The notes under the pieces were generated by a model that saw only the letters and a program-made list of their open reading frames with translations, was not told where the DNA came from and ran no database searches. This document shows, in pieces, positions 30,451-57,980 of a stretch of 64,000 bases of DNA (positions are counted from its first letter, which is position 1; every line of letters begins with the position of its first letter). The stretch covers positions 4,159 to 68,158 of the forward strand of contig CAZCZL010000014.1 of the NCBI GenBank assembly GCA_964503315.1, written 5' to 3'. The stretch is from an uncultured Ignavibacteriales bacterium. Its GTDB lineage: Bacteria > Zixibacteria > MSB-5A5 > GN15 > FEB-12. A program made the translations under genes and the position numbers.

Positions 30451-30539
30451 TGGCGGAGAGACTGGGATTCGAACCCAGGATAGGGGTGACCTATACACGC
30501 TTTCCAGGCGTGCGCCTTCAACCACTCGGCCATCTCTCC
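30451..30539 (-). tRNA. tRNA-Ser(GGA): tRNA-Ser (anticodon GGA), CCA encoded
   Basis: Reverse complement is GGAGAGATGGCCGAGTGGTTGAAGGCGCACGCCTGGAAAGCGTGTATAGGTCACCCCTATCCTGGGTTCGAATCCCAGTCTCTCCGCCA. It folds with a 7-bp acceptor stem, anticodon stem CACGC/GCGTG, loop CTGGAAA, a long variable arm, T-loop GTTCGAATC, discriminator G and CCA. Confidence 0.95.
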
Positions 30540-47074: not shown

Positions 47075-48817
47075 ATGAAGAGTAATCGAAAAGTCATTAA
47101 AGGGGTGCCGGCCTCGCCCGGGATCGCTGTCGGCAACGCGCGCATCATCCTCCCCGATGATATCCGCATCCCCGAAATGATCATCCCCGCCGCACGCTGT
47201 CAGTCCGAGATCGACGCGCTCGACCGCGCGGTCGCGGCGACGATGGCCGAAGTCCGGAAACTTCGCGACGCCGCCAACCGCAAAGCATCCGGCCCGATCG
47301 CCAAGATCTTCGATGCCCAGATGCTGATCGCCTCAGATTACGATTTCATCCAGCAGGTGAAAGAGCAGATCGTCGCGAAACGTCGCCCTGCGGGATATAT
47401 CTACAAGCAGTTGGTGGACAAGATCACCGCGCCATTGCGGCTTGCTGCCGACCCGTACATGCGTCAGATGTCGATGGAGATCGATGCGGTCGCGCGGAAG
47501 ATCCTCTCCAAACTGGGAACGGGTGCGACCGACGAAGATATCGAGTTTCCGCCGAACACCATTCTGGTGTCGCAGGTTTTCACTCCCGGCCAGGTGCTGA
47601 CCTTCCGCGACCGCAAGGCCGCCGGTTTTGCCGCCGCTGAAGGCGGGCGCACGTCGCACATGGCGCTCATCGCCCGCTCGCTGATGATCCCCATGGTCAT
47701 CGCCGAGGATATCGCCGAGCTGGTCGAGAACGACGCGAGGATCATTGTCGATGGTTCCGCCGGCGTGGTGATTATCAATCCATCTGAGGAAGATTGTGCT
47801 GAAGCCTCGCGCCTGAAAAAACGCCAGGGGCCGGCCCTTATCACTCAGATCAAGAAACTTGAGACGATCCCGCCGAAGACCGCCGATGGGCGCACGCTTA
47901 ATATCGCGGCCAATCTTGAACTCCCCGGCCCGATCGATGAGATACTGGCCTCCAAAAAGATCTGCGTTGGATTGTATCGAACCGAGTTTCTCTACCTTCG
48001 CGAGGGGGACTTCCCGGACGAAGAGACGCAGTACGAGGTCTACTCGCAGATCGCGGAGACCTTTAGTCATTGCGGCGTGATCCTGCGGACATACGATATC
48101 GGTTCGGACAAGATCAAAGCCGATGGCGAATTCGGCCACGAAGACAACCCCGCGCTCGGATGGCGGGGAATCCGGTCGATGCTTGAGATGCCGGATGTCT
48201 TCAAAGCCCAGATCCGGGCGATGTTGCGCGCTTCAGCCCGCAAGAATCTCAAGATCATGCTCCCCATGATCTCCGACCTGATCGAATACGAACGGGCAAA
48301 GAAGCTCATCCAGCAGGTGATGCTCGACCTGAAGCGTGCGCGCATCCCGTTTGACCCGCAAATCCCGATAGGGATCATGGTCGAAGTCCCCTCGGCGGCC
48401 TTGACCGCCGACCTGCTGGCCCAGAAAGTGGACTTCATATCTATTGGTACCAACGACTTGACGCAATACACGATGTCCGCGGACCGGGCCAATGCGAAAG
48501 TCGCCGGTCTCTACAATTCCTACCACCCCTCTGTCCTGCAACTGATTAAAATGACGGTTGAGGCTTGTAAAAAGCACCGGAAACCAGTATCTATATGCGG
48601 CGAAATCGCGGGTGACCACTTGGCGCTCCCCCTTTTCGTCGGTTTGGGCGTGGAGCAACTCTCCATGAACCCCGCCAAGATATATGATATGTGCCGGTTG
48701 GTCGGCAAGATCGACACCGGAGTGGCTCGACATTTGGCCGAAACGGTCATGAAGTGCCCCTCTGCCGCCGCCGTTACCCGTCGCCTGGAAACATTCCAGG
48801 ATGCACTCGAGAAGTAG
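47075..48817 (+). CDS. ptsI: Phosphoenolpyruvate-protein phosphotransferase (PTS enzyme I)
   Basis: 580 aa. Phosphohistidine region 'GGRTSHMALIARSL', 'GLYRTEFLY', 'LGWRGIR', 'FISIGTNDLTQYTMSADR', 'CGEIAGD'. Confidence 0.9.
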   Translation: MKSNRKVIKGVPASPGIAVGNARIILPDDIRIPEMIIPAARCQSEIDALDRAVAATMAEVRKLRDAANRKASGPIAKIFDAQMLIASDYDFIQQVKEQIVAKRRPAGYIYKQLVDKITAPLRLAADPYMRQMSMEIDAVARKILSKLGTGATDEDIEFPPNTILVSQVFTPGQVLTFRDRKAAGFAAAEGGRTSHMALIARSLMIPMVIAEDIAELVENDARIIVDGSAGVVIINPSEEDCAEASRLKKRQGPALITQIKKLETIPPKTADGRTLNIAANLELPGPIDEILASKKICVGLYRTEFLYLREGDFPDEETQYEVYSQIAETFSHCGVILRTYDIGSDKIKADGEFGHEDNPALGWRGIRSMLEMPDVFKAQIRAMLRASARKNLKIMLPMISDLIEYERAKKLIQQVMLDLKRARIPFDPQIPIGIMVEVPSAALTADLLAQKVDFISIGTNDLTQYTMSADRANAKVAGLYNSYHPSVLQLIKMTVEACKKHRKPVSICGEIAGDHLALPLFVGLGVEQLSMNPAKIYDMCRLVGKIDTGVARHLAETVMKCPSAAAVTRRLETFQDALEK

Positions 48818-48844
48818 TGAACGTTTAGATACAGGATACGCGAT

Positions 48845-49912
48845 TTGGCATTGCTTGATGATGTTGACACGATACGCTCAGTCGATCCGTCGAATATGTA
48901 CAACCGGATATTCGACTTCCCTGAGCAGATGGCCGATGCCCTGAAGTTGGCGGATGGCTGGAATATTCGGGCGAACGATTTTGCGGGGATCCGCAACGTG
49001 GTGGTTATCGGCATGGGCGGTTCCGCGATCGGCGGCGACCTTGTCCGCACCCTCCTGGCCGACCGACTAGTCATCCCCTTCTTTGTGAACAGACACTATA
49101 AGCTGCCGGAGTTCGTCGACGACGAGACGCTGGTGATCGCTTCCTCATATAGCGGTAACACTGAAGAGACCCTTGAGGCTCTCGATGACGCCCTGGATCG
49201 CAAGGCCCAGATAGTCGCCATCACGACCGGCGGAATGCTCGAAGAGGTCGCCAAGCTGAACGACATTCCGTTGATGCAGATCCCCGGTGGCATGCAGCCC
49301 CGCGCCGCGCTCGGCTACTCGTTTGTGCCGGTCGCCATGCTGTTCGAGAAACTCGGTATGGTGAAAGGGATGTCCAAGGAGATCAACGGCGCGATCCGTT
49401 TGATGCAGACTTTCCGCGAACGGTATATCGAAGATTCACCGACTGAATCCAACATGGCGAAGAATATCGCCGAGCGACTGCTCGCCAAGATGGCGATAGT
49501 GTATACCGGCCCGACATTAATGGATGTGGTGGGGCTTCGCTGGAAAGGCCAGTTCTGCGAAAACGGCAAGAACATGACCTTCCATAACGTCTTCCCGGAA
49601 TTCAACCATAACGAACTGGTCGCCTGGTCTGACCCTATCGGCCCCCATACCGAGAATCTCCAGGTGCTCTTTATTCGCGACCAGGGAGATCACCCAAAGG
49701 TGCAGAAGCGAATGGATATCGTCAAAGGGTTGATCGAGAAGACGGGAGTCGACGTGCTCGAATTACGCTCTATCGGCGATTCGCCACTTGAGCGCATGTT
49801 CAGCATGATCCAGTTGGGTGATTTCGCCTCTTACTATCTGGCGGTGGTGAACGATACTGACCCGACGCCGGTAGAAGCGATAGAAAGCCTGAAAAAGGCG
49901 CTGGCCAAATAG
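48845..49912 (+). CDS. Bifunctional phosphoglucose/phosphomannose isomerase (SIS domain)
   Basis: 355 aa. 'VVVIGMGGSAIGGDL' and 'LVIASSYSGNTEETL'. Layout typical of the PGI/PMI family. TTG start. Confidence 0.75.
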   Translation: MALLDDVDTIRSVDPSNMYNRIFDFPEQMADALKLADGWNIRANDFAGIRNVVVIGMGGSAIGGDLVRTLLADRLVIPFFVNRHYKLPEFVDDETLVIASSYSGNTEETLEALDDALDRKAQIVAITTGGMLEEVAKLNDIPLMQIPGGMQPRAALGYSFVPVAMLFEKLGMVKGMSKEINGAIRLMQTFRERYIEDSPTESNMAKNIAERLLAKMAIVYTGPTLMDVVGLRWKGQFCENGKNMTFHNVFPEFNHNELVAWSDPIGPHTENLQVLFIRDQGDHPKVQKRMDIVKGLIEKTGVDVLELRSIGDSPLERMFSMIQLGDFASYYLAVVNDTDPTPVEAIESLKKALAK

Positions 49913-49937
49913 AGTCGACACTGCCGGGCAGTTCGAC

Positions 49938-50156
49938 ATGGCTGAATCAATCACACAGTCGACCAGAGTAGAAGACCTGGTCGAACAACACCCCCAGGCG
50001 ATCGGTATGTTCATTGAGCATGGATTGCCCTGTGTTGTCTGCGGCGAACCGTTCTGGGGAACGATCGCCGAACTGGCCGCCCTCAAGAATTGGGAGCCGG
50101 CCCGCGTGGAAAAACTCGTGCACGCATTGAACCGCCGATTACTCAAATCCGAGTGA
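49938..50156 (+). CDS. DUF1858-like small redox-disulfide protein
   Basis: 72 aa. 'VEDLVEQHPQAIGMFIEHGLPCVVCGEPFWGTIAELA' matches the hybrid-cluster-associated CxxC small-domain pattern. Confidence 0.6.
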   Translation: MAESITQSTRVEDLVEQHPQAIGMFIEHGLPCVVCGEPFWGTIAELAALKNWEPARVEKLVHALNRRLLKSE

Positions 50157-50203
50157 ACAGAATCGACGGTTCCTCAGTCTAATGTAAGGTACACCGATTC
50201 GCA

Positions 50204-51103
50204 TTGACCCGCGCTGATGGAGTTCGCAGAGTGACTGTAGGTAAACGGATTCGCCCTCTTCTTCTATCTCTATCCTCCCTGTTGGCGGCATCCAGCGTTT
50301 TGGCGCAGGAAACGGCAGATAGTCAGTCACTCTTCCGGACCGATCGATTTAACGCGCTCATTCTGATCCTCGTTTTCTCCGGAGTTGTCCTGCTGTATAC
50401 CCGCTGGGCGCGCCAGGGGAAGACGTTGTTCATTCGCAAAATGGCCGGTCTCGATGCCATGGAAGAAGCAGTTGGCCGTGCGACCGAAATGGGACGTCCG
50501 GTGCTCTTCATCCCCGGATTGCAGGAGATCGATGAAATAGAGACGATCGCCGGTATTTCCATCCTCGGACGTGTTGCTCGCATTACCGCACAGTACGAAA
50601 CCCCGCTCCTTGTGCCGGTCCGTTATCCGATGGTCCTTGCCGCCGGACAGGAAGTTGTCGAGCAGGCCTATACCGAAGTTGGACGGCGCGACTCGTACAA
50701 CAAAGATATCGTCCGTTATGTCGCCGGCGAGCAGATGGCCTTCACCGCTACCGTCAATGGGATGATGATGCGAGAGCGCCCTGCGGCGAATATCTTCATG
50801 GGCGCGTTTTTCGCCGAATCACTGCTCCTCGCCGAAACCGGCAACGCGGCCGGCTCGATTCAGATAGCTGGTACCGCCCGCCCCGAACAGCTCCCCTTTT
50901 TCGTCGCCGCCTGTGACTACACATTAATGGGCGAAGAGCTGTATGCGGCCTCGGCGTATCTGTCGCATGAACCGATCATGCTCGGCGGCCTCAAAGGACA
51001 GGATTTCGTCAAGGTCATAATTATCCTCATGATCATCCTCGGAGTCGTACTCGCAAGCCTCGGTTATGGCGAGTCCTTCATCAAACTGTTTGAGGCCGTG
51101 TAG
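50204..51103 (+). CDS. Unknown membrane protein A1 (signal/TM, ~190-aa soluble domain, C-terminal TM)
   Basis: 299-aa ORF starting at TTG 50204 or GTG 50231. 'KRIRPLLLSLSSLLAASSVLAQE', then TM 'ALILILVFSGVVLLY', a soluble middle, and C-terminal TM 'VKVIIILMIILGVVLASLGY'. No family recognised. Confidence 0.65.
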   Translation: MTRADGVRRVTVGKRIRPLLLSLSSLLAASSVLAQETADSQSLFRTDRFNALILILVFSGVVLLYTRWARQGKTLFIRKMAGLDAMEEAVGRATEMGRPVLFIPGLQEIDEIETIAGISILGRVARITAQYETPLLVPVRYPMVLAAGQEVVEQAYTEVGRRDSYNKDIVRYVAGEQMAFTATVNGMMMRERPAANIFMGAFFAESLLLAETGNAAGSIQIAGTARPEQLPFFVAACDYTLMGEELYAASAYLSHEPIMLGGLKGQDFVKVIIILMIILGVVLASLGYGESFIKLFEAV

Positions 51104-51109
51104 CCCAAC

Positions 51110-51772
51110 ATGAGAACCGTCGCCCCCATCGTCATTGCCTTCCTATCCGGGTTCGTCATGATCCTGTCGTTCTTCTTTAATCCGGATCGGACATTCCTGG
51201 GGCGCATCGAATCCGAGGTGCTGGTCTGGGTTACAATCGTCGGCGGCTTCACGCTGCTGTTGGGTGTGGTCTCGATCACGCGCGTTAATTTCCGCGCCGT
51301 GCGCAATCAGAAGTCAGGCTGGTTCTACAACCTGATGACTCTGATTTCGATCTTTGTCATGGCCATTCCCGCGATGCTTCCTGTTTCCTGGTCTCCGCTC
51401 TTCGGCGACCGTGAGGGTTCCATCTACGACTGGCTGTTTACGTATGTTGATTCGATCATGATGCAGACCATGTTCGGTCTGCTTGCGTTCTATATCGCGT
51501 CGGCCGCCTATCGCGCGTTCCGCGCGCGCAATGCCGAGGCGACCCTGCTCTTGTTGACCGCGGTCCTCGTCATGCTCTGGCGTATCCCGATGGGCGAGGC
51601 ATTTCTTCGCCTCTTCTCCGACAACCTCCCGCAGTGGATCAATACCTTCGTGATGAACGGCGCCAATATGTCCGTGCAACGAGGTATTATCATCGGTGCC
51701 GCGCTCGGCGCGGCCTCCATGTCGCTCCGTATCCTGCTGGGGATCGAACGCACCTACATGGGGAAGGGATAA
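51110..51772 (+). CDS. Unknown polytopic membrane protein B1
   Basis: 220 aa with about 6 hydrophobic helices. Starts 6 nt after A1. No family recognised. Confidence 0.65.
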   Translation: MRTVAPIVIAFLSGFVMILSFFFNPDRTFLGRIESEVLVWVTIVGGFTLLLGVVSITRVNFRAVRNQKSGWFYNLMTLISIFVMAIPAMLPVSWSPLFGDREGSIYDWLFTYVDSIMMQTMFGLLAFYIASAAYRAFRARNAEATLLLLTAVLVMLWRIPMGEAFLRLFSDNLPQWINTFVMNGANMSVQRGIIIGAALGAASMSLRILLGIERTYMGKG

Positions 51773-51776
51773 GCGG

Positions 51777-52616
51777 ATGAATATCTGGGACAAGATATCT
51801 TCGCTCGACCGTCGCTGGATCTACCTGCTGGTCGCCCTGACTGTCATTTTCCCCTTGATAGTCCCGGCCGACTTCCCGGTCCGCATAACGCCCGAAGCGA
51901 CGCAGCTCTATGAGGCTGTCGAAGCTCTGCCGGATTCATCTGTCGTCCTGTTGACGTTCGACTACTATCCGTCTTCCACCGCGGAGACCGAGCCGATGTC
52001 GACCGCGGCGTTGCATCATCTCTTCCGCAAGCACTGCAAGGTGCTGACGATGACCACCATTCCACTCGGTGGGCCATCCATCGCCGAGCGTGTCACCCGC
52101 CATATCGCGGCAGAATACGGCAAGCAGTATGGTGTCGACTTCGTCAACCTTGGCTACAAAGCCAACTACGTCGCCGTCCTCAAAGGGATGGGGACTTCAA
52201 TCGAAGCGATCTACCCGACCGACAACTCCAGCACGCCGCTCGCTCAACTGCCGATGATGCAATCCATCAAGAACTACAGTGATATCGACTTCATCTTCGC
52301 GGTGGCTGATAACGCTATCGTCGAGTATTGGATCTCCATCGTTAACGCGCAGTATGGCACTCGCGTGGGCGCCGGCGTTACCGCCGTCTCCGCTCCCAAG
52401 TATTATTCCTTCGTCAGCTCCGGTCAGATGACCGGCCTGCTGGGAGGAATGAAGGGGGCCGCAGAATACGAGCAACTGGTCAGCAAGCCGGCGATCGCCA
52501 TGAAAGGAATGGGGATCCAGTCGCTCATCCACCTCCTTATCATCGCGCTGGTTCTGGTCGGCAACCTCGGCTACTTCCTGGGAAAACGGAAAGATAACAA
52601 GGGGATGTCCGTATGA
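51777..52616 (+). CDS. Unknown membrane protein A2 (N-terminal TM, soluble domain, C-terminal TM); distant paralogue of A1
   Basis: Start at ATG 51777 (MNIWDKISSLDRRWIYLLVALTVIFPLIV), 4 nt after the B1 stop. C-terminal TM 'LIHLLIIALVLVGNLGY'. Colinear weak similarity to A1. Confidence 0.65.
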   Translation: MNIWDKISSLDRRWIYLLVALTVIFPLIVPADFPVRITPEATQLYEAVEALPDSSVVLLTFDYYPSSTAETEPMSTAALHHLFRKHCKVLTMTTIPLGGPSIAERVTRHIAAEYGKQYGVDFVNLGYKANYVAVLKGMGTSIEAIYPTDNSSTPLAQLPMMQSIKNYSDIDFIFAVADNAIVEYWISIVNAQYGTRVGAGVTAVSAPKYYSFVSSGQMTGLLGGMKGAAEYEQLVSKPAIAMKGMGIQSLIHLLIIALVLVGNLGYFLGKRKDNKGMSV

Positions 52617-53254
52617 GTTTCATCGACATCCTCCAGATCTGGATCGCCGCGTTTTTTACCCTGGCTATCTTCTCGTTCCTCTACAAAGACAACCCGGTAT
52701 ACAAGTTCGTGGAGCATATCTTCGCCGGTCTCTCCGCGGGGTACTATGTCGGTCTCATCTGGAAGTCGGTCATTATCCAACAGCTGTGGGAGCCGATGAC
52801 CCGCGCCGACAATCCCAAATGGTATCTCTTCCTCCCCGGCATTCTCGGCGCCCTCATGTTCGCGCGCCTGGTCCCCAAGATATCTTGGGTGTCGCGACTC
52901 GCGCTCGCGTTCGTAATGGGGAATACCGCCGGAGTCTTCATCATCTCGCAATTGCACGGTCTCGTCCTGCCGCAGATGCAGGATACGATGTTGCCGGTCA
53001 CCGATGGCGGCTTCGCGGCCAGCATCCTGACCATTATCACGATAGTCGGTGTCCTTTCGACGCTCATCTATTTCTATTTCTCGAAAGAACATACCGGAGC
53101 GCTGGGCGTGACCGCCAAGGTCGGCGTCTGGTTTATCATGATATCCTTTGGCGCGCATTTCGGCTACACCGTCATGGGCCGCGTTTCCCTTTTGATCGGG
53201 CGCGTCTATTTTCTTTATAATGACTGGATTGGTTCCTTTTCCCAGATTTTCTGA
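52613..53254 (+). CDS. Unknown polytopic membrane protein B2
   Basis: 213 aa with about 6 hydrophobic helices. ATGA overlap with A2. Same size class as B1. Confidence 0.65.
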   Translation: MSFIDILQIWIAAFFTLAIFSFLYKDNPVYKFVEHIFAGLSAGYYVGLIWKSVIIQQLWEPMTRADNPKWYLFLPGILGALMFARLVPKISWVSRLALAFVMGNTAGVFIISQLHGLVLPQMQDTMLPVTDGGFAASILTIITIVGVLSTLIYFYFSKEHTGALGVTAKVGVWFIMISFGAHFGYTVMGRVSLLIGRVYFLYNDWIGSFSQIF

Positions 53255-53324
53255 GCGATTCCATGTGATCGCCGTATAATATTCGCTGGCTCTCTGAATG
53301 CCGGCACTATAAGTTGTGCGAGAT

Positions 53325-54398
53325 ATGCGAAAACTGATTCCCCTATTCAGCGTTCTTGTTTTAGTAATTCTTGGCGGCTGCGGACAGGACCCCTCCAAGT
53401 CCGTCTATGACACAAAAACCAATCCCGAGGGTTACCCCGCGCGCGCCTGCCTGATGCTCGAGCAAATAGAGTCTGGCGAACTAGCCACCTACGACGACAT
53501 CACCAACAATTTCGGCCAACTCTATACCTCGTTCCCTGAACTGCTTGACAATCTCCAGTGGCAGCAACTAATAGAGAAACTAGGCGTGAAGTTCCGCTAT
53601 CGCGCGGATCAACTGGTCGATTCCGGCGTCGTCTGGTATCGCGAAGCCGCCAAGCTGTACACGCTTGCGGCCTTTGCCCGCCCACTCGATGAACGGCTTC
53701 AGCATCGCAACAATATGTTCGCCACCTACGAGAAGGCGGTGCAGGACTCGGTCATTCCACCTAATTTCGATCCGGTCACCGTGCCGATCGAGGTTCCGGA
53801 TCAGTTGCGCATTCTTCGTTATTTCATGCTCGATGACTCTATTCATCAGCAGTTCGCCAACGAGTTTCTGGTCCCCCGCATTCTGAACCGTCATGCAGCC
53901 GAGGCCGCTATGAAGGTGGTCGGCCCACAGCAGCTCCCGGTGATCGACAAATGTTTCCTGACCACACTCGGCTTCAAATATCGCGGCCCCAGTCAGCCAA
54001 TGGCCAGTTTTGCCGAACCGGCCATCGATCTGATGTCCTGCCAGATCGCACGCCAACCCAATGGTTGGTATCACGCCGAGTTCTACTTTATCCCGCGCGA
54101 AAGCCTCAAGGCAGACTACACTGTGGCACTCCGTCTGGCCGTTTCCGATTCCACAGCGGCCAACCCTGCTACAACTTTCCGCCAATTATCCTTTGATTTC
54201 CATCCGAATCGGTCGACCCAAGGCTGGAAAGCGGGCGAGCTCGCGCCGGCCTATCGACGGTTCGCCTATCCCGGCGAGATCAGTCAGGTCGCGATCGGCA
54301 TTTACGAGAAGTCGGCGGACTCAACTCATTTCGTCTCACTGCGCGATACCGGCGAGCCGATCCTGGTTCTGCCACATTCGGTTATCAGCGGCCGTTGA
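53325..54398 (+). CDS. Lipoprotein of unknown function, last gene of the A-B-A'-B' cluster
   Basis: ATG 53325 gives 'MRKLIPLFSVLVLVILGGCGQD' (lipobox LGGC). The C-terminal ~110 aa ('YTVALRLAV...FDFHPNRSTQGWKAGE...YPGEISQVAIGIYE') resemble beta-sandwich domains seen at the C-termini of some bacterial membrane glycosyltransferases. That resemblance is pattern memory only. Confidence 0.6.
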   Translation: MRKLIPLFSVLVLVILGGCGQDPSKSVYDTKTNPEGYPARACLMLEQIESGELATYDDITNNFGQLYTSFPELLDNLQWQQLIEKLGVKFRYRADQLVDSGVVWYREAAKLYTLAAFARPLDERLQHRNNMFATYEKAVQDSVIPPNFDPVTVPIEVPDQLRILRYFMLDDSIHQQFANEFLVPRILNRHAAEAAMKVVGPQQLPVIDKCFLTTLGFKYRGPSQPMASFAEPAIDLMSCQIARQPNGWYHAEFYFIPRESLKADYTVALRLAVSDSTAANPATTFRQLSFDFHPNRSTQGWKAGELAPAYRRFAYPGEISQVAIGIYEKSADSTHFVSLRDTGEPILVLPHSVISGR

Positions 54399-54488
54399 AC
54401 GGGCTAACCTCCCCAGCTCTCCCACTTTGCGCTTTACTTGCCGGGGGGCATTGGCTACTTTGGCCTCAAGTTTCATGGAGATACAGCA

Positions 54489-55463
54489 ATGAAAGTCATA
54501 GTCCCGGTAGCGGGAGTTGGAAGCCGGCTTCGCCCGCACACTCACTCCACCCCCAAAGTATTGCTGCCGGTCGCCGGAAGACCGATCATCGACCATGTTC
54601 TGGAGCCGATTGCTCGGCTGAAGCCGGAGGAGGTGGCCTTTGTCGTCGGTTACCTCGGCGCCGAGATCGAGGCCTACGTCCAGGCGAACTACTCTTTCAA
54701 ATCCAGATTTGTCTGGCAGGAACGTCTGCTTGGGCTCGGCCATGCCATCAACCTCGCTGTGCAGCAGATGTCCGACGGCCCCATTCTTGTCGTCCTGGGT
54801 GACACGATCGTCGAAACCGATCTGACCAAATTCATTGCCGCAGGCGACTATGTCCTGGGCGTGCGACAGGTCTCCGACCCGCACCGCTTCGGTATCGCGG
54901 AAGTGCGCAATGGTTTTGTAACGAATCTGGAGGAGAAGCCTTCCATTCCCAAAACCAACCTCGCCGTTATCGGCTTGTACTATTTCCATGAATCCCAGAC
55001 GTTGCGCAAAGCGCTTCAGGAACATTCCGCATCCGGCATGACCACCCAGGGTGAAGTGCAGTTCACCGACGCCCTGCAGCGAATGATCAAGACGGGAACG
55101 AAATTCCTTCCATACGAGGTCAACGGATGGTACGACTGCGGCAAGAAAGAGACTGTCCTCGAGACCAACCGTCACTTCCTCAGTTATGAGACCTCGACGC
55201 CGACCCGTGAAGGCTGCACCATTATCCCGCCGGTCTTCATCGCCGAATCAGCGCGGGTGACCGCTTCGGTAATCGGCCCCTATGTCGCCATATCCGACGA
55301 GGCCGTGGTCGAAAGTTCAGTCATCAAAAATTCCATCATCGGCCCGAAAGCGAGCGTCCGGAATCTCATCCTGCATGATTCGCTGGTCGGGAGTAACGCG
55401 ACGCTCAACGGCGTCAGCTCGGTTGTCAATGTGGGTGATTCGTCGGAAACGGCCTTCACCTGA
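54489..55463 (+). CDS. Sugar-phosphate nucleotidyltransferase with C-terminal left-handed beta-helix
   Basis: Start at ATG 54489, preceded by GGAGA. '[34 protein letters not shown]' is the NTP-transferase G-x-G-t-R-l motif. C-terminal hexapeptide-like repeats ('[30 protein letters not shown]'). Confidence 0.8.
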
Positions 55464-55501
55464 GCATAGAGTATACGAAGCACCACAAGGAGTATGTAGT
55501 C

Positions 55502-56665
<1,164 letters not shown>

Positions 56666-56668
56666 ACC

Positions 56669-57925
56669 ATGATCAAGTCGGATATTAAGAATATCAAGCT
56701 TGCCGCGCAGGGGAAGCAGAAGATCGAATGGGCCGACCGCTCGATGCCGGTCCTCGAACTGATCCGTGAGCGGTTCACCAAAGAAAAACCGCTCAAAGGT
56801 GTCAATATCGCGGCCTGTCTGCATGTGACGACTGAGACCGCCAACCTGATGCGGACGCTCAAAGCCGGCGGCGCCAATCTGACGTTATGTGCGTCGAATC
56901 CCCTCTCTACGCAGGATGACACAGCCGCCGCGCTGGTCGCGGAATACGGCATTTCCACCTTCGCCATCAATGGCGAAGACCACAAGACCTACTACAAGCA
57001 TATTCATCAGGCGCTGGATATCGAGCCGCATATCACGATGGATGACGGCGCCGATCTGGTCTCGACTCTTCACACCGAACGAAAGAGCCAGGCGGGCAAA
57101 GTCTGGGCAGGGACGGAAGAGACCACCACGGGTGTCATTCGTCTCAAAGCAATGGAGCAGAACAACGCGCTTCTGTTTCCGGTGATCGCGGTGAATGAGT
57201 CTAAGACGAAGCATCTGTTCGACAATCGGTACGGTACCGGACAGTCAACTTTAGATGGTGTCATTCGTGCCACCAATATGCTGATCGCCGGCTCAACCGT
57301 AGTGATCGCCGGTTACGGATGGTGCGGGCGTGGTGTTGCCAGTCGCGCCAAAGGTCTCGGGGCGAATGTGATCGTCACCGAGGTCGACGCGGTCAAGGGT
57401 ATCGAAGCGGCGATGGATGGCTTTATGGTGATGCCGATGGCCAAGGCTGCCTCGATGGGTGATCTGTTTATTACGGTGACTGGTGATATCAATGTCATCC
57501 GACTTGAGCATGTGCTCAAAATGAAAGACCGCGCCATCATCTGTAATTCCGGCCATTTCAATGTTGAGATCGATCTGAAGGCGATCGCCAAAGCGGCGAA
57601 GTCTCATCGAATCGTCCGACCGCATGTCGAGGAGTTTGTGATCGGGAAGCGGTGCGTGTATATCCTCGCCGATGGCCGTTTGATCAACTTGGCTTCTGCC
57701 GAGGGACATCCGGCGATGGTGATGGATATGTCGTTCGCCAACCAGGCAATCGCGGCTGAGTATGTGGTGCAGAACCACGCCAAGCTGCAGAAGCGGGTCT
57801 ACTCGGTTCCGGAGAAGCTGGATAATCTGATCGCGAGTCTGAAGCTGAAGTCGATGGGTGTCTCTATCGACCGCCTAACGCCCGAGCAGAAGAAGTATCT
57901 GGCAAGCTGGGAGTTGGGGACTTGA
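56669..57925 (+). CDS. ahcY: Adenosylhomocysteinase
   Basis: 418 aa. 'MDDGADL', 'EETTTGV', '[23 protein letters not shown]', NAD site '[12 protein letters not shown]', 'GHFNVEID'. Confidence 0.95.
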
Positions 57926-57945
57926 TCTGCCATTAATGATGATTT

Positions 57946-57980
57946 AAAGGCGAAGCCGTGTGGTTTCGCCTTTTGTTGTT
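57946..57980 (+). terminator. Rho-independent terminator after ahcY
   Basis: 9-bp stem aaaggcgaa/ttcgccttt with a 10-nt loop, followed by ttttgttgtt. It is the first convincing terminator after ptsI on this strand. Confidence 0.8.

Follow-up and report, generated by a model that had tools for sequence, protein, structure and literature searches.

Analysis of a 64,000-nucleotide (nt) stretch of DNA from an uncultured Ignavibacteriales bacterium (placed in the Zixibacteria by GTDB; contig CAZCZL010000014.1, positions 4,159 to 68,158 of the forward strand), which will be referred to as the window, revealed that four adjacent genes for membrane proteins, A1, B1, A2 and B2, form a cassette that is shared by several phyla. 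The cassette represents a large, old and strictly co-inherited family of four membrane proteins that show no detectable relation to each other, and its four genes are always passed on and copied together, with their order and spacing preserved. We tentatively propose, with a probability of roughly 0.4, that it encodes a hetero-oligomeric complex of the translocation type that would mediate the uptake or export of a cargo.

In the window, the open reading frame (ORF) listing places five genes on the + strand: A1 (50204-51103, 299 amino acids (aa)), B1 (51110-51772, 220 aa, polytopic with about six transmembrane (TM) helices), A2 (51777-52616, 279 aa, bitopic), B2 (52613-53254, 213 aa, about six TM helices) and, as gene 5, a lipoprotein gene (53316-54398, 360 aa, lipobox LGGC). 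They are spaced by 6 nt, 4 nt, a 4-nt overlap in which the start of B2 and the stop of A2 share ATGA, and 61 nt. The database entry for A1 starts at 50231 and comprises 290 aa (P0001, 100% identical), and the closest locus from a genome is that of a Candidatus Zixiibacteriota metagenome-assembled genome (MAG; L001), the A1 protein of which is 97% identical. An earlier note on this DNA, made from the sequence alone, had called the five genes tightly packed and co-directional. The coordinates bear this out for the direction and for the first three junctions, but the last gap is 61 nt and not about 70 nt, and the close packing is not peculiar to the five genes because all 11 genes of the surrounding string, from PtsI to AhcY, are equally packed.

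A scan of genomes yielded 68 loci and a scan of metagenomes added 80; 151 loci were labelled with hidden Markov models (HMMs) built from the four families. The order A1-B1-A2-B2 was found in Zixibacteria, Eisenbacteria, Aegiribacteria/Fermentibacteria, Planctomycetota, Armatimonadota (Chthonomonas, Fimbriimonadales) and one Brocadiaceae fragment. Among the 151 loci, which carry 187 copies of A1, this gene was followed by B1 170 times, B1 by A2 160 times and A2 by B2 140 times; B2 was followed by the next A1 in 46 cases, and no alternative order occurred. Such an invariant order supports the idea, already expressed in the earlier note, of an integral-membrane set, the products of which almost certainly function as a hetero-oligomer. 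The cassette genes are translationally coupled, the median intergenic distances being 10 nt (A1-B1), 6 nt (B1-A2) and 2 nt (A2-B2). Identity to the window proteins outside the Zixibacteria amounts to 43-58% for A1, 33-39% for B1, 25-40% for A2 and 32-47% for B2. The window does hold five packed, co-directional genes, as had been claimed; the unit that is conserved, however, comprises four, as A1-B1-A2-B2 is syntenic across at least five phyla whereas the fifth gene was found only in Zixibacteria.

As a second line of evidence, complete cassettes occur two or three times in succession, head to tail, in at least 18 loci, for example two copies in L048 and L051 and three copies in L056, L070 and L149; further tandem loci are L063, L088, L090, L096, L103, L108 and L136. 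Copies inside one locus are merely 33-54% identical, from which it follows that the duplication of the whole cassette is old. All four genes were kept in each duplicated copy, which argues strongly for joint action of the four products. In several of the triple loci the third A1 resembles that of the window in being short (about 295 aa) and lacking an ectodomain. Fusions of cassette genes were not detected among the ORFs of the loci; an apparent A2-B2 fusion in L013 was dismissed as a stop codon is present between the two genes, and a 248-aa fragment (P0395) that joins the C-terminus of A2 to the N-terminus of B2 is either a fusion or an assembly error and is unverified. Additional genes are inserted between B1 and A2 in a few relatives of the Zixibacteria. 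In two loci this is a 115-aa gene resembling STAS-domain anti-sigma antagonists (L107:11571-11918 and L110:8805-9152), and in two others the insert encodes a small TM protein, a LiaF-like protein with two TM helices and a Cys-rich protein of 91 aa (L092:11606-12833 and L098:8919-10155); all of these were identified by eye only.

Profile searches assigned A1 to the Pfam family DUF6754 (PF20539) with an E value of 1.3e-117 and 391.9 bits compared to a cutoff of 27, covering profile positions 3-249 of 257, and the same family was matched by all 16 diverse A1 homologues analysed. For A1 this refutes the earlier note, according to which no family or named domain is recognisable, though the family name carries no functional content: DUF6754 is a catalogued domain of unknown function and is silent on B1, A2, B2, the cassette and the GlmL-like accessory module described below. 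For B1, A2, B2 and the lipoprotein there were no matches in Pfam, NCBIfam and PADLOC, a Pfam model for the A2 family does not exist, and profile searches of all PDB chain sequences returned nothing meaningful for any of the four cassette families. For B1, A2 and B2 the absence of a characterised family was thus confirmed, and likewise Pfam and NCBIfam scans detected no transporter family and no ATPase among the five gene products, in agreement with what had been noted before. Members of each family (13-16 diverse ones, searched singly at E values up to 10) did not reveal a recurrent weak Pfam family in A1, B1, A2 or B2; DUF7521 was matched by five of 15 B1 members with a best E value of 0.013, which is uninformative. 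Neither the five window proteins nor the four accessory proteins matched a known anti-phage defence system in PADLOC. A literature search retrieved no papers on DUF6754, PF20539 or PF13941, the last being the Pfam family of the GlmL-like protein. The families themselves are large, with at least 8000 candidates for A1 in sequence searches and 4450 clusters at 50% identity for A2 (E <= 1e-3). In Aegiribacteria/Fermentibacteria, a second, solitary DUF6754 gene is present without B1, A2 and B2 (L071:10001-11158; also in L058, L059 and L062), where it is flanked by a gene for a GT4 glycosyltransferase, two GNAT acetyltransferase genes and a Wzi-family gene.

Family-averaged hydropathy of A1 showed a signal-peptide-like N-terminus, a TM segment at about aa 49-67, a domain of about 200 aa and a second TM segment at about aa 267-288. 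The AlphaFold2 model, calculated with 150 homologues (predicted local distance difference test (pLDDT) 76, predicted template modelling score (pTM) 0.63), consists of a TM helix, a helix α0, five βα units and a long TM helix. A Foldseek search of the PDB with this model yielded only generic α/β matches, all with E > 1e-3, and P-loop ATPases reached a TM-score of about 0.25. The 15 residues following the first TM helix contain on average 4.3 K+R and 0.2 D+E, a charge bias from which the α/β domain of A1 is predicted to be cytoplasmic. Homologues outside the Zixibacteria are longer (about 400 aa) and possess an extra N-terminal region after the signal peptide, and several of these long forms are named "fibronectin type III domain-containing" in their source records. 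These long forms agree with a cytoplasmic A1 domain, independently of the charge bias. A1 is the most conserved subunit, with about 45 invariant residues, many of them charged; the invariant polar residues include R69, E79, R83, T85, E86, E141, Q168, R181, E196, E202, C228-D229-Y230, E236, D258 and K261. For B1, a conserved motif was observed around FYIASAAxRAFRAR, and its basic loops 2 and 4 (K+R 4.2 and 3.0, respectively) lead to a predicted N-in/C-in orientation.

A2 shows a comparable layout, with TM segments at aa 15-32 and 249-268 enclosing a domain of about 215 aa and followed by a basic tail, so that the architecture described earlier for both A proteins, a domain of about 200 aa between two TM helices, was borne out by hydropathy, as were the approximately six hydrophobic segments of each of the polytopic proteins B1 and B2. 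In the AlphaFold2 model of A2 (121 homologues; pLDDT 89.9, pTM 0.84), a doubly wound six-strand α/β domain is preceded by an N-terminal TM helix and a helix α0 and followed by a long C-terminal TM helix. Again, Foldseek searches of the PDB gave generic matches only, with TM-scores of 0.49 at most and E > 1e-3; for the two A models, neither of which exceeded a TM-score of 0.49, these generic matches comprised short-chain dehydrogenases, GT-B halves, universal stress proteins, SLOG/LOG domains and P-loop ATPases. On the basis of the models, the domains of A1 and A2 are both predicted to be Rossmann-like α/β domains held between two membrane helices. Both tails of A2 are basic (K+R 3.2 and 4.3) and the start of its domain is acidic, which predicts a periplasmic location. 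Consistent with this, and independent of the charge bias, the 838-aa homologue P0439 carries an insertion of about 550 aa in the α/β domain that contains a CARDB cell-surface domain (29.2 bits, cutoff 22.7). Other A2 variants are about 400-440 aa long (P0445, P0450, P0467 and P0484), and several members of the A2 family have an insertion of 120-150 aa in front of the C-terminal helix. B2 possesses two conserved E-H motifs and the motif FGAxFGYTVMxRxSLLIGR, and a weak charge bias suggests that its N-terminus is outside. From these charge patterns we infer that the domains of A1 and A2 are located on opposite faces of the membrane.

The alternation of A and B proteins had led the earlier note to propose an ancient tandem duplication of a two-gene module, A-B giving rise to A'-B', and it had pointed to weak colinear similarity of A1 and A2. 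BLASTP comparisons of A1 with A2 and of B1 with B2 gave E values of 0.26 or worse. When the alignments derived from the loci were compared by hhalign, the probability was 10.8% for A1/A2, limited to 18 columns of the C-terminal TM helix, and 0.6% for B1/B2; alignments of 150 and 121 sequences raised A1/A2 to 12.4%, again confined to the C-terminal helix, and with 129-173 sequences per family the values were 1.4% (A1/A2) and 0.3% (B1/B2), equal to those of the A1/B2 and B1/A2 controls. Over the three alignment sets the probabilities thus ranged from 1.4 to 12% for A1/A2 and from 0.3 to 1.1% for B1/B2, so that pairwise hhalign revealed no relationship and neither the similarity of the A proteins nor the duplication found sequence or profile support. 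The order of secondary structure elements is alike in the modelled A1 and A2 domains, and the motif pairs that the earlier note had aligned do sit on equivalent elements (α0/β1 and β5); Rossmann-like folds, however, recur by convergence. Because α/β domains are common and the two domains are predicted to face opposite sides, we rate a duplication of the A-B module as possible but unsupported.

These data bear on an alternative explanation in which the cassette is a duplicated A-B module of the GldG/GldF type, ABC-2-like without its ATPase, with the lipoprotein as periplasmic or outer-membrane partner. Similar lengths and an identical order of elements in A1 and A2 (TM helix, α0, five or six βα units, long TM helix), the similar size and TM count of B1 and B2, and a charge bias suggesting that the A-B modules may be mutually inverted, as in some old duplicated membrane pairs, would all fit, and to these may be added the weak profile match of the C-terminal helices (probability 10-12%), the only one seen. 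Nevertheless, we regard this explanation as unlikely, since the profile comparisons are no better than the cross-type controls even with 130-170 sequences per family, the BLASTP comparisons are not significant, ABC2_membrane and ABC_transp_aux are not matched by 13-16 diverse members per family, and the lipoprotein is absent beyond one sub-lineage of the Zixibacteria.

The lipoprotein gene was characterised further. Its product starts with a signal peptide and lipobox, MRDMRKLIPLFSVLVLVILGG-C, and none of the 14 aligned homologues deviates at the lipobox Cys; judged by this residue, gene 5 is a genuine lipoprotein gene, and the LGGC lipobox that had been pointed out before proved correct. Its assignment as a partner of the membrane complex did not hold, as the gene is not conserved with the cassette: homologues were detected in 14 Zixibacteria loci and were absent from all other lineages scanned. 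The protein evolves fast, with 24-41% identity beyond close relatives. Gene 5 is a neighbour specific to a Zixibacteria sub-lineage and stands outside the conserved cassette. A sigma-70-like promoter match (TTGATC, 18-nt spacer, TATAAT; 10/12) lies at 53192-53221 (+), still within B2 at its 3′ end and some 95 nt ahead of the lipoprotein start; such sites are no more frequent in the region than expected from shuffling.

The genomic setting of the cassette in the window is a string of 11 + strand genes with short gaps (47075-57925), encoding PtsI, PGI/PMI, a DUF1858 protein, the five-gene set, a sugar-phosphate nucleotidyltransferase, MetK and AhcY. The sole strong terminator-like hairpin on the + strand follows AhcY (57946-57973; 12-bp stem and T run), and 47075-57973 may represent one long transcription unit. 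The gene directly upstream of A1 (49938-50156, +) encodes a 72-aa protein resembling DUF1858 and the hybrid-cluster-protein-associated redox disulfide domain, with scores below the family cutoffs; a gene of this type occupies the identical position in six further Zixibacteria loci (L002, L011, L023, L025, L032 and L040) and is absent from other phyla. The order PtsI-PGI-cassette-nucleotidyltransferase-MetK-AhcY is found only in Zixibacteria and close relatives, in which A1 is 64-81% identical. A link to the phosphotransferase system, considered due to PtsI two genes upstream, was dropped as lineage synteny for this reason. Elsewhere in the window, a tRNA gene at 30454-30539 (-) is the only Rfam match at gathering score (RF00005, 62.1 bits).

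The neighbourhood also has to be considered with regard to an enzymatic function. Conceivably, the cassette encodes a membrane-bound enzyme complex, for example for modification or polymerisation of envelope lipids or glycans, in which the cytoplasmic A1 domain would be catalytic, with its three companions serving as an anchor and passing on the product. The strong conservation of A1 across phyla and its many invariant polar residues are in line with this, Rossmann-like folds are typical of enzymes using nucleotides or sugar phosphates, and PGI/PMI and the sugar-phosphate nucleotidyltransferase in Zixibacteria are paralleled by GT4, GNAT and Wzi genes in Aegiribacteria. The carbohydrate-related neighbours are lineage-specific synteny, however, so that the glycan or envelope role hinted at earlier on the basis of PGI/PMI and the nucleotidyltransferase was not substantiated; the PtsI-PGI-nucleotidyltransferase context is weak evidence for a sugar or glycan role. 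Moreover, family, PDB-sequence and Foldseek searches found no enzyme family and no nucleotide-binding motif in the cassette, and ancient amplification of entire cassettes in tandem is seen more typically in transport or receptor systems than for a single enzyme. Taken together, an enzyme complex appears rather unlikely to us.

Neighbours in other lineages vary as well. In Eisenbacteria, glycine-cleavage genes, LplA and Opp genes were observed near the cassette, Aegiribacteria show transketolase, a GT4 glycosyltransferase, GNAT acetyltransferases and Wzi, and dockerin and β-helix proteins are encoded beside one triple cassette. A recurrent association was seen for an accessory module of four co-directional genes, located directly upstream of the cassette in Eisenbacteria (e.g., L069:6084-9853). 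It encodes g163 (163 aa, two hydrophobic segments, i.e. a two-TM protein), the small protein g112 (112 aa), a GlmL/MutL-family protein of 606 aa (Pfam PF13941, E 1e-124; ASKHA superfamily) and g374 (374 aa, no family). Genes of this module adjoin the cassette in several lineages and about 35 loci, among them L043-L055, L069, L072, L080, L088, L091, L094, L095, L105, L106, L109, L124, L136, L141, L147 and L149. In many metagenome lineages the module is again found next to the cassette, whether this is present once or in several copies; g112 adjoins the cassette in Armatimonadota (L064, L068) and g374 in the Brocadiaceae contig (L065). The GlmL-like protein scored 417 bits against Pfam MutL (cutoff 27) and 220, 208 and 161 bits against the NCBIfam models GlmL, Or-4 and glmL_fam, the cutoffs of which are 475, 600 and 204 bits, respectively. 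With scores short of every NCBIfam GlmL cutoff, the protein is a divergent representative of the family. The four accessory genes have no homologue within the 64-kb window, so the previous observation that no nucleotide-binding protein is encoded holds for the window, but a GlmL-like ASKHA ATPase adjoins the cassette in many other lineages. Two ideas arising from this module were rejected. A B12-binding domain in A1, suggested by the association with GlmL, was supported neither by a DxHxxG motif nor by Foldseek matches to B12 domains, and a swivel motif resembling PEP-utilisers, recognised by eye in g374, was likewise backed neither by a His common to L069 and L053 nor by a Pfam match.

The ASKHA protein together with the predicted α/β domains on each membrane face might also point to a trans-membrane sensing, regulatory or scaffolding complex. 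In this case A2 and the extracytoplasmic modules (fibronectin type III (FN3), CARDB) would sense the envelope, and A1 would relay the signal to GlmL-like ASKHA or STAS proteins. ASKHA proteins often dock onto bitopic membrane partners, adhesion-type β-sandwich modules are present outside the membrane, and the STAS-like and LiaF-like inserts between B1 and A2 could be accommodated. We nevertheless consider such a function quite improbable. Pfam scans, diverse members included, identified no kinase, cyclase, HAMP, PAS or other signalling domain in the cassette, the two conserved 6-TM proteins would be left unexplained, and the inserts are lineage-specific in addition to having been recognised by eye.

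Returning to the proposed translocation complex, the four products would assemble into a hetero-oligomeric inner-membrane complex with about 16 membrane helices per protomer and one α/β domain on each face. B1 and B2, with six TM helices each, would most likely form the membrane core or conduit, A2 would handle the substrate on the periplasmic side, and the highly conserved A1 domain would couple or gate on the cytoplasmic side. In some lineages, extracytoplasmic β-sandwich modules would be added, FN3 on A1 and CARDB in an A2 homologue. Where present, the cytoplasmic GlmL-like ASKHA ATPase, g374 and the two small proteins may energise or regulate the complex; they are not near the window cassette. 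We favour translocation because of the 6+6-TM core, the periplasmic domain with its adhesion-type modules, the conserved cytoplasmic domain and a paralogous expansion that is typical of transport. Several points weigh against this proposal. Searches of Pfam, NCBIfam and the PDB, the last by sequence and by fold, linked no cassette component to a family of transporters, channels or secretion systems. Clues to the substrate are missing as well, since no neighbour besides the GlmL-like module is consistent across phyla and no riboswitch was found upstream of the cassette, be it that of the window or those of four diverse loci. An enzyme would account equally well for the many charged residues that are invariant in A1. 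The A1 model is of moderate confidence, with the lowest values in the stretch that is most conserved, the physical assembly and the topology are inferred, and the orientation of B2 is weakly determined. Beyond one DUF label, the cassette is without annotation, solved relative or literature, and knowledge of its function would close a gap that recurs in what is understood of the envelope of uncultured phyla. Should the GlmL-like protein indeed energise the cassette, this would represent a role of the GlmL family outside B12-mutase operons.

Finally, the cassette was compared with known systems. The earlier note had likened the A/B pairs to GldG/GldF of ABC-2 systems. Indeed, in both cases a protein with about six TM helices stands beside an α/β protein held by N- and C-terminal helices and facing the periplasm (A2). 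The analogy failed every family test run, however. ABC2_membrane was not matched by B1, B2 or 15 and 16 diverse members of their families, nor ABC_transp_aux by A1, A2 or 13 A2-family and 16 A1-family members, at E values up to 10. An ABC ATPase is neither encoded by the window neighbours nor recurrent beside the cassette in the 151 loci, the Opp genes of Eisenbacteria being lineage synteny, and the A1 domain is predicted to point into the cytoplasm. GldG is also about twice as large.

ABC importers and Mla systems share with the cassette the 6+6 TM helices and the combination of periplasmic and cytoplasmic α/β domains, and a lipoprotein neighbour (Zixibacteria) and a STAS-like insert (L107, L110) would add to the likeness. 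In contrast, the A1 domain lacks Walker A/B and ABC signature motifs and has no P-loop resemblance beyond the low TM-score given above, and BPD_transp, MlaE and MlaD were not matched. RnfA/RnfE and NqrD/NqrE with RnfG/NqrC likewise combine two 6-TM proteins of about 200-220 aa with bitopic proteins carrying soluble domains, and B1 and B2 may be oppositely oriented, as a weak charge bias suggests. The cassette differs from them in that Rnf-Nqr and FMN_bind HMMs found no match, conserved cofactor-binding Cys/His clusters are absent, and B1 and B2 are not detectably homologous. PilM-PilN-PilO-PilP and GspL-GspM are reminiscent through an ASKHA protein beside bitopic proteins, in many lineages, and through the lipoprotein following the cassette in Zixibacteria; yet the ASKHA protein of the cassette belongs to the GlmL/hydantoinase branch rather than to the PilM/FtsA branch, the A proteins have two TM helices each, and a pilin, a secretin, a hexameric ATPase and matches to the respective families are lacking.

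Set against Pfam, NCBIfam, PADLOC, the PDB (sequence and fold), Rfam and the literature, we rate the cassette as lying outside the known kinds of system. It may tentatively be suggested, at odds clearly below even, that it represents the core of an undescribed class of inner-membrane machine, built from four unrelated families, three of them without a database model, with domains on both faces of the membrane and two to three old paralogous copies in many genomes. In its full form, such a machine would rely on a GlmL-like ASKHA ATPase to drive or service it, in place of an ABC, AAA+ or P-loop motor.

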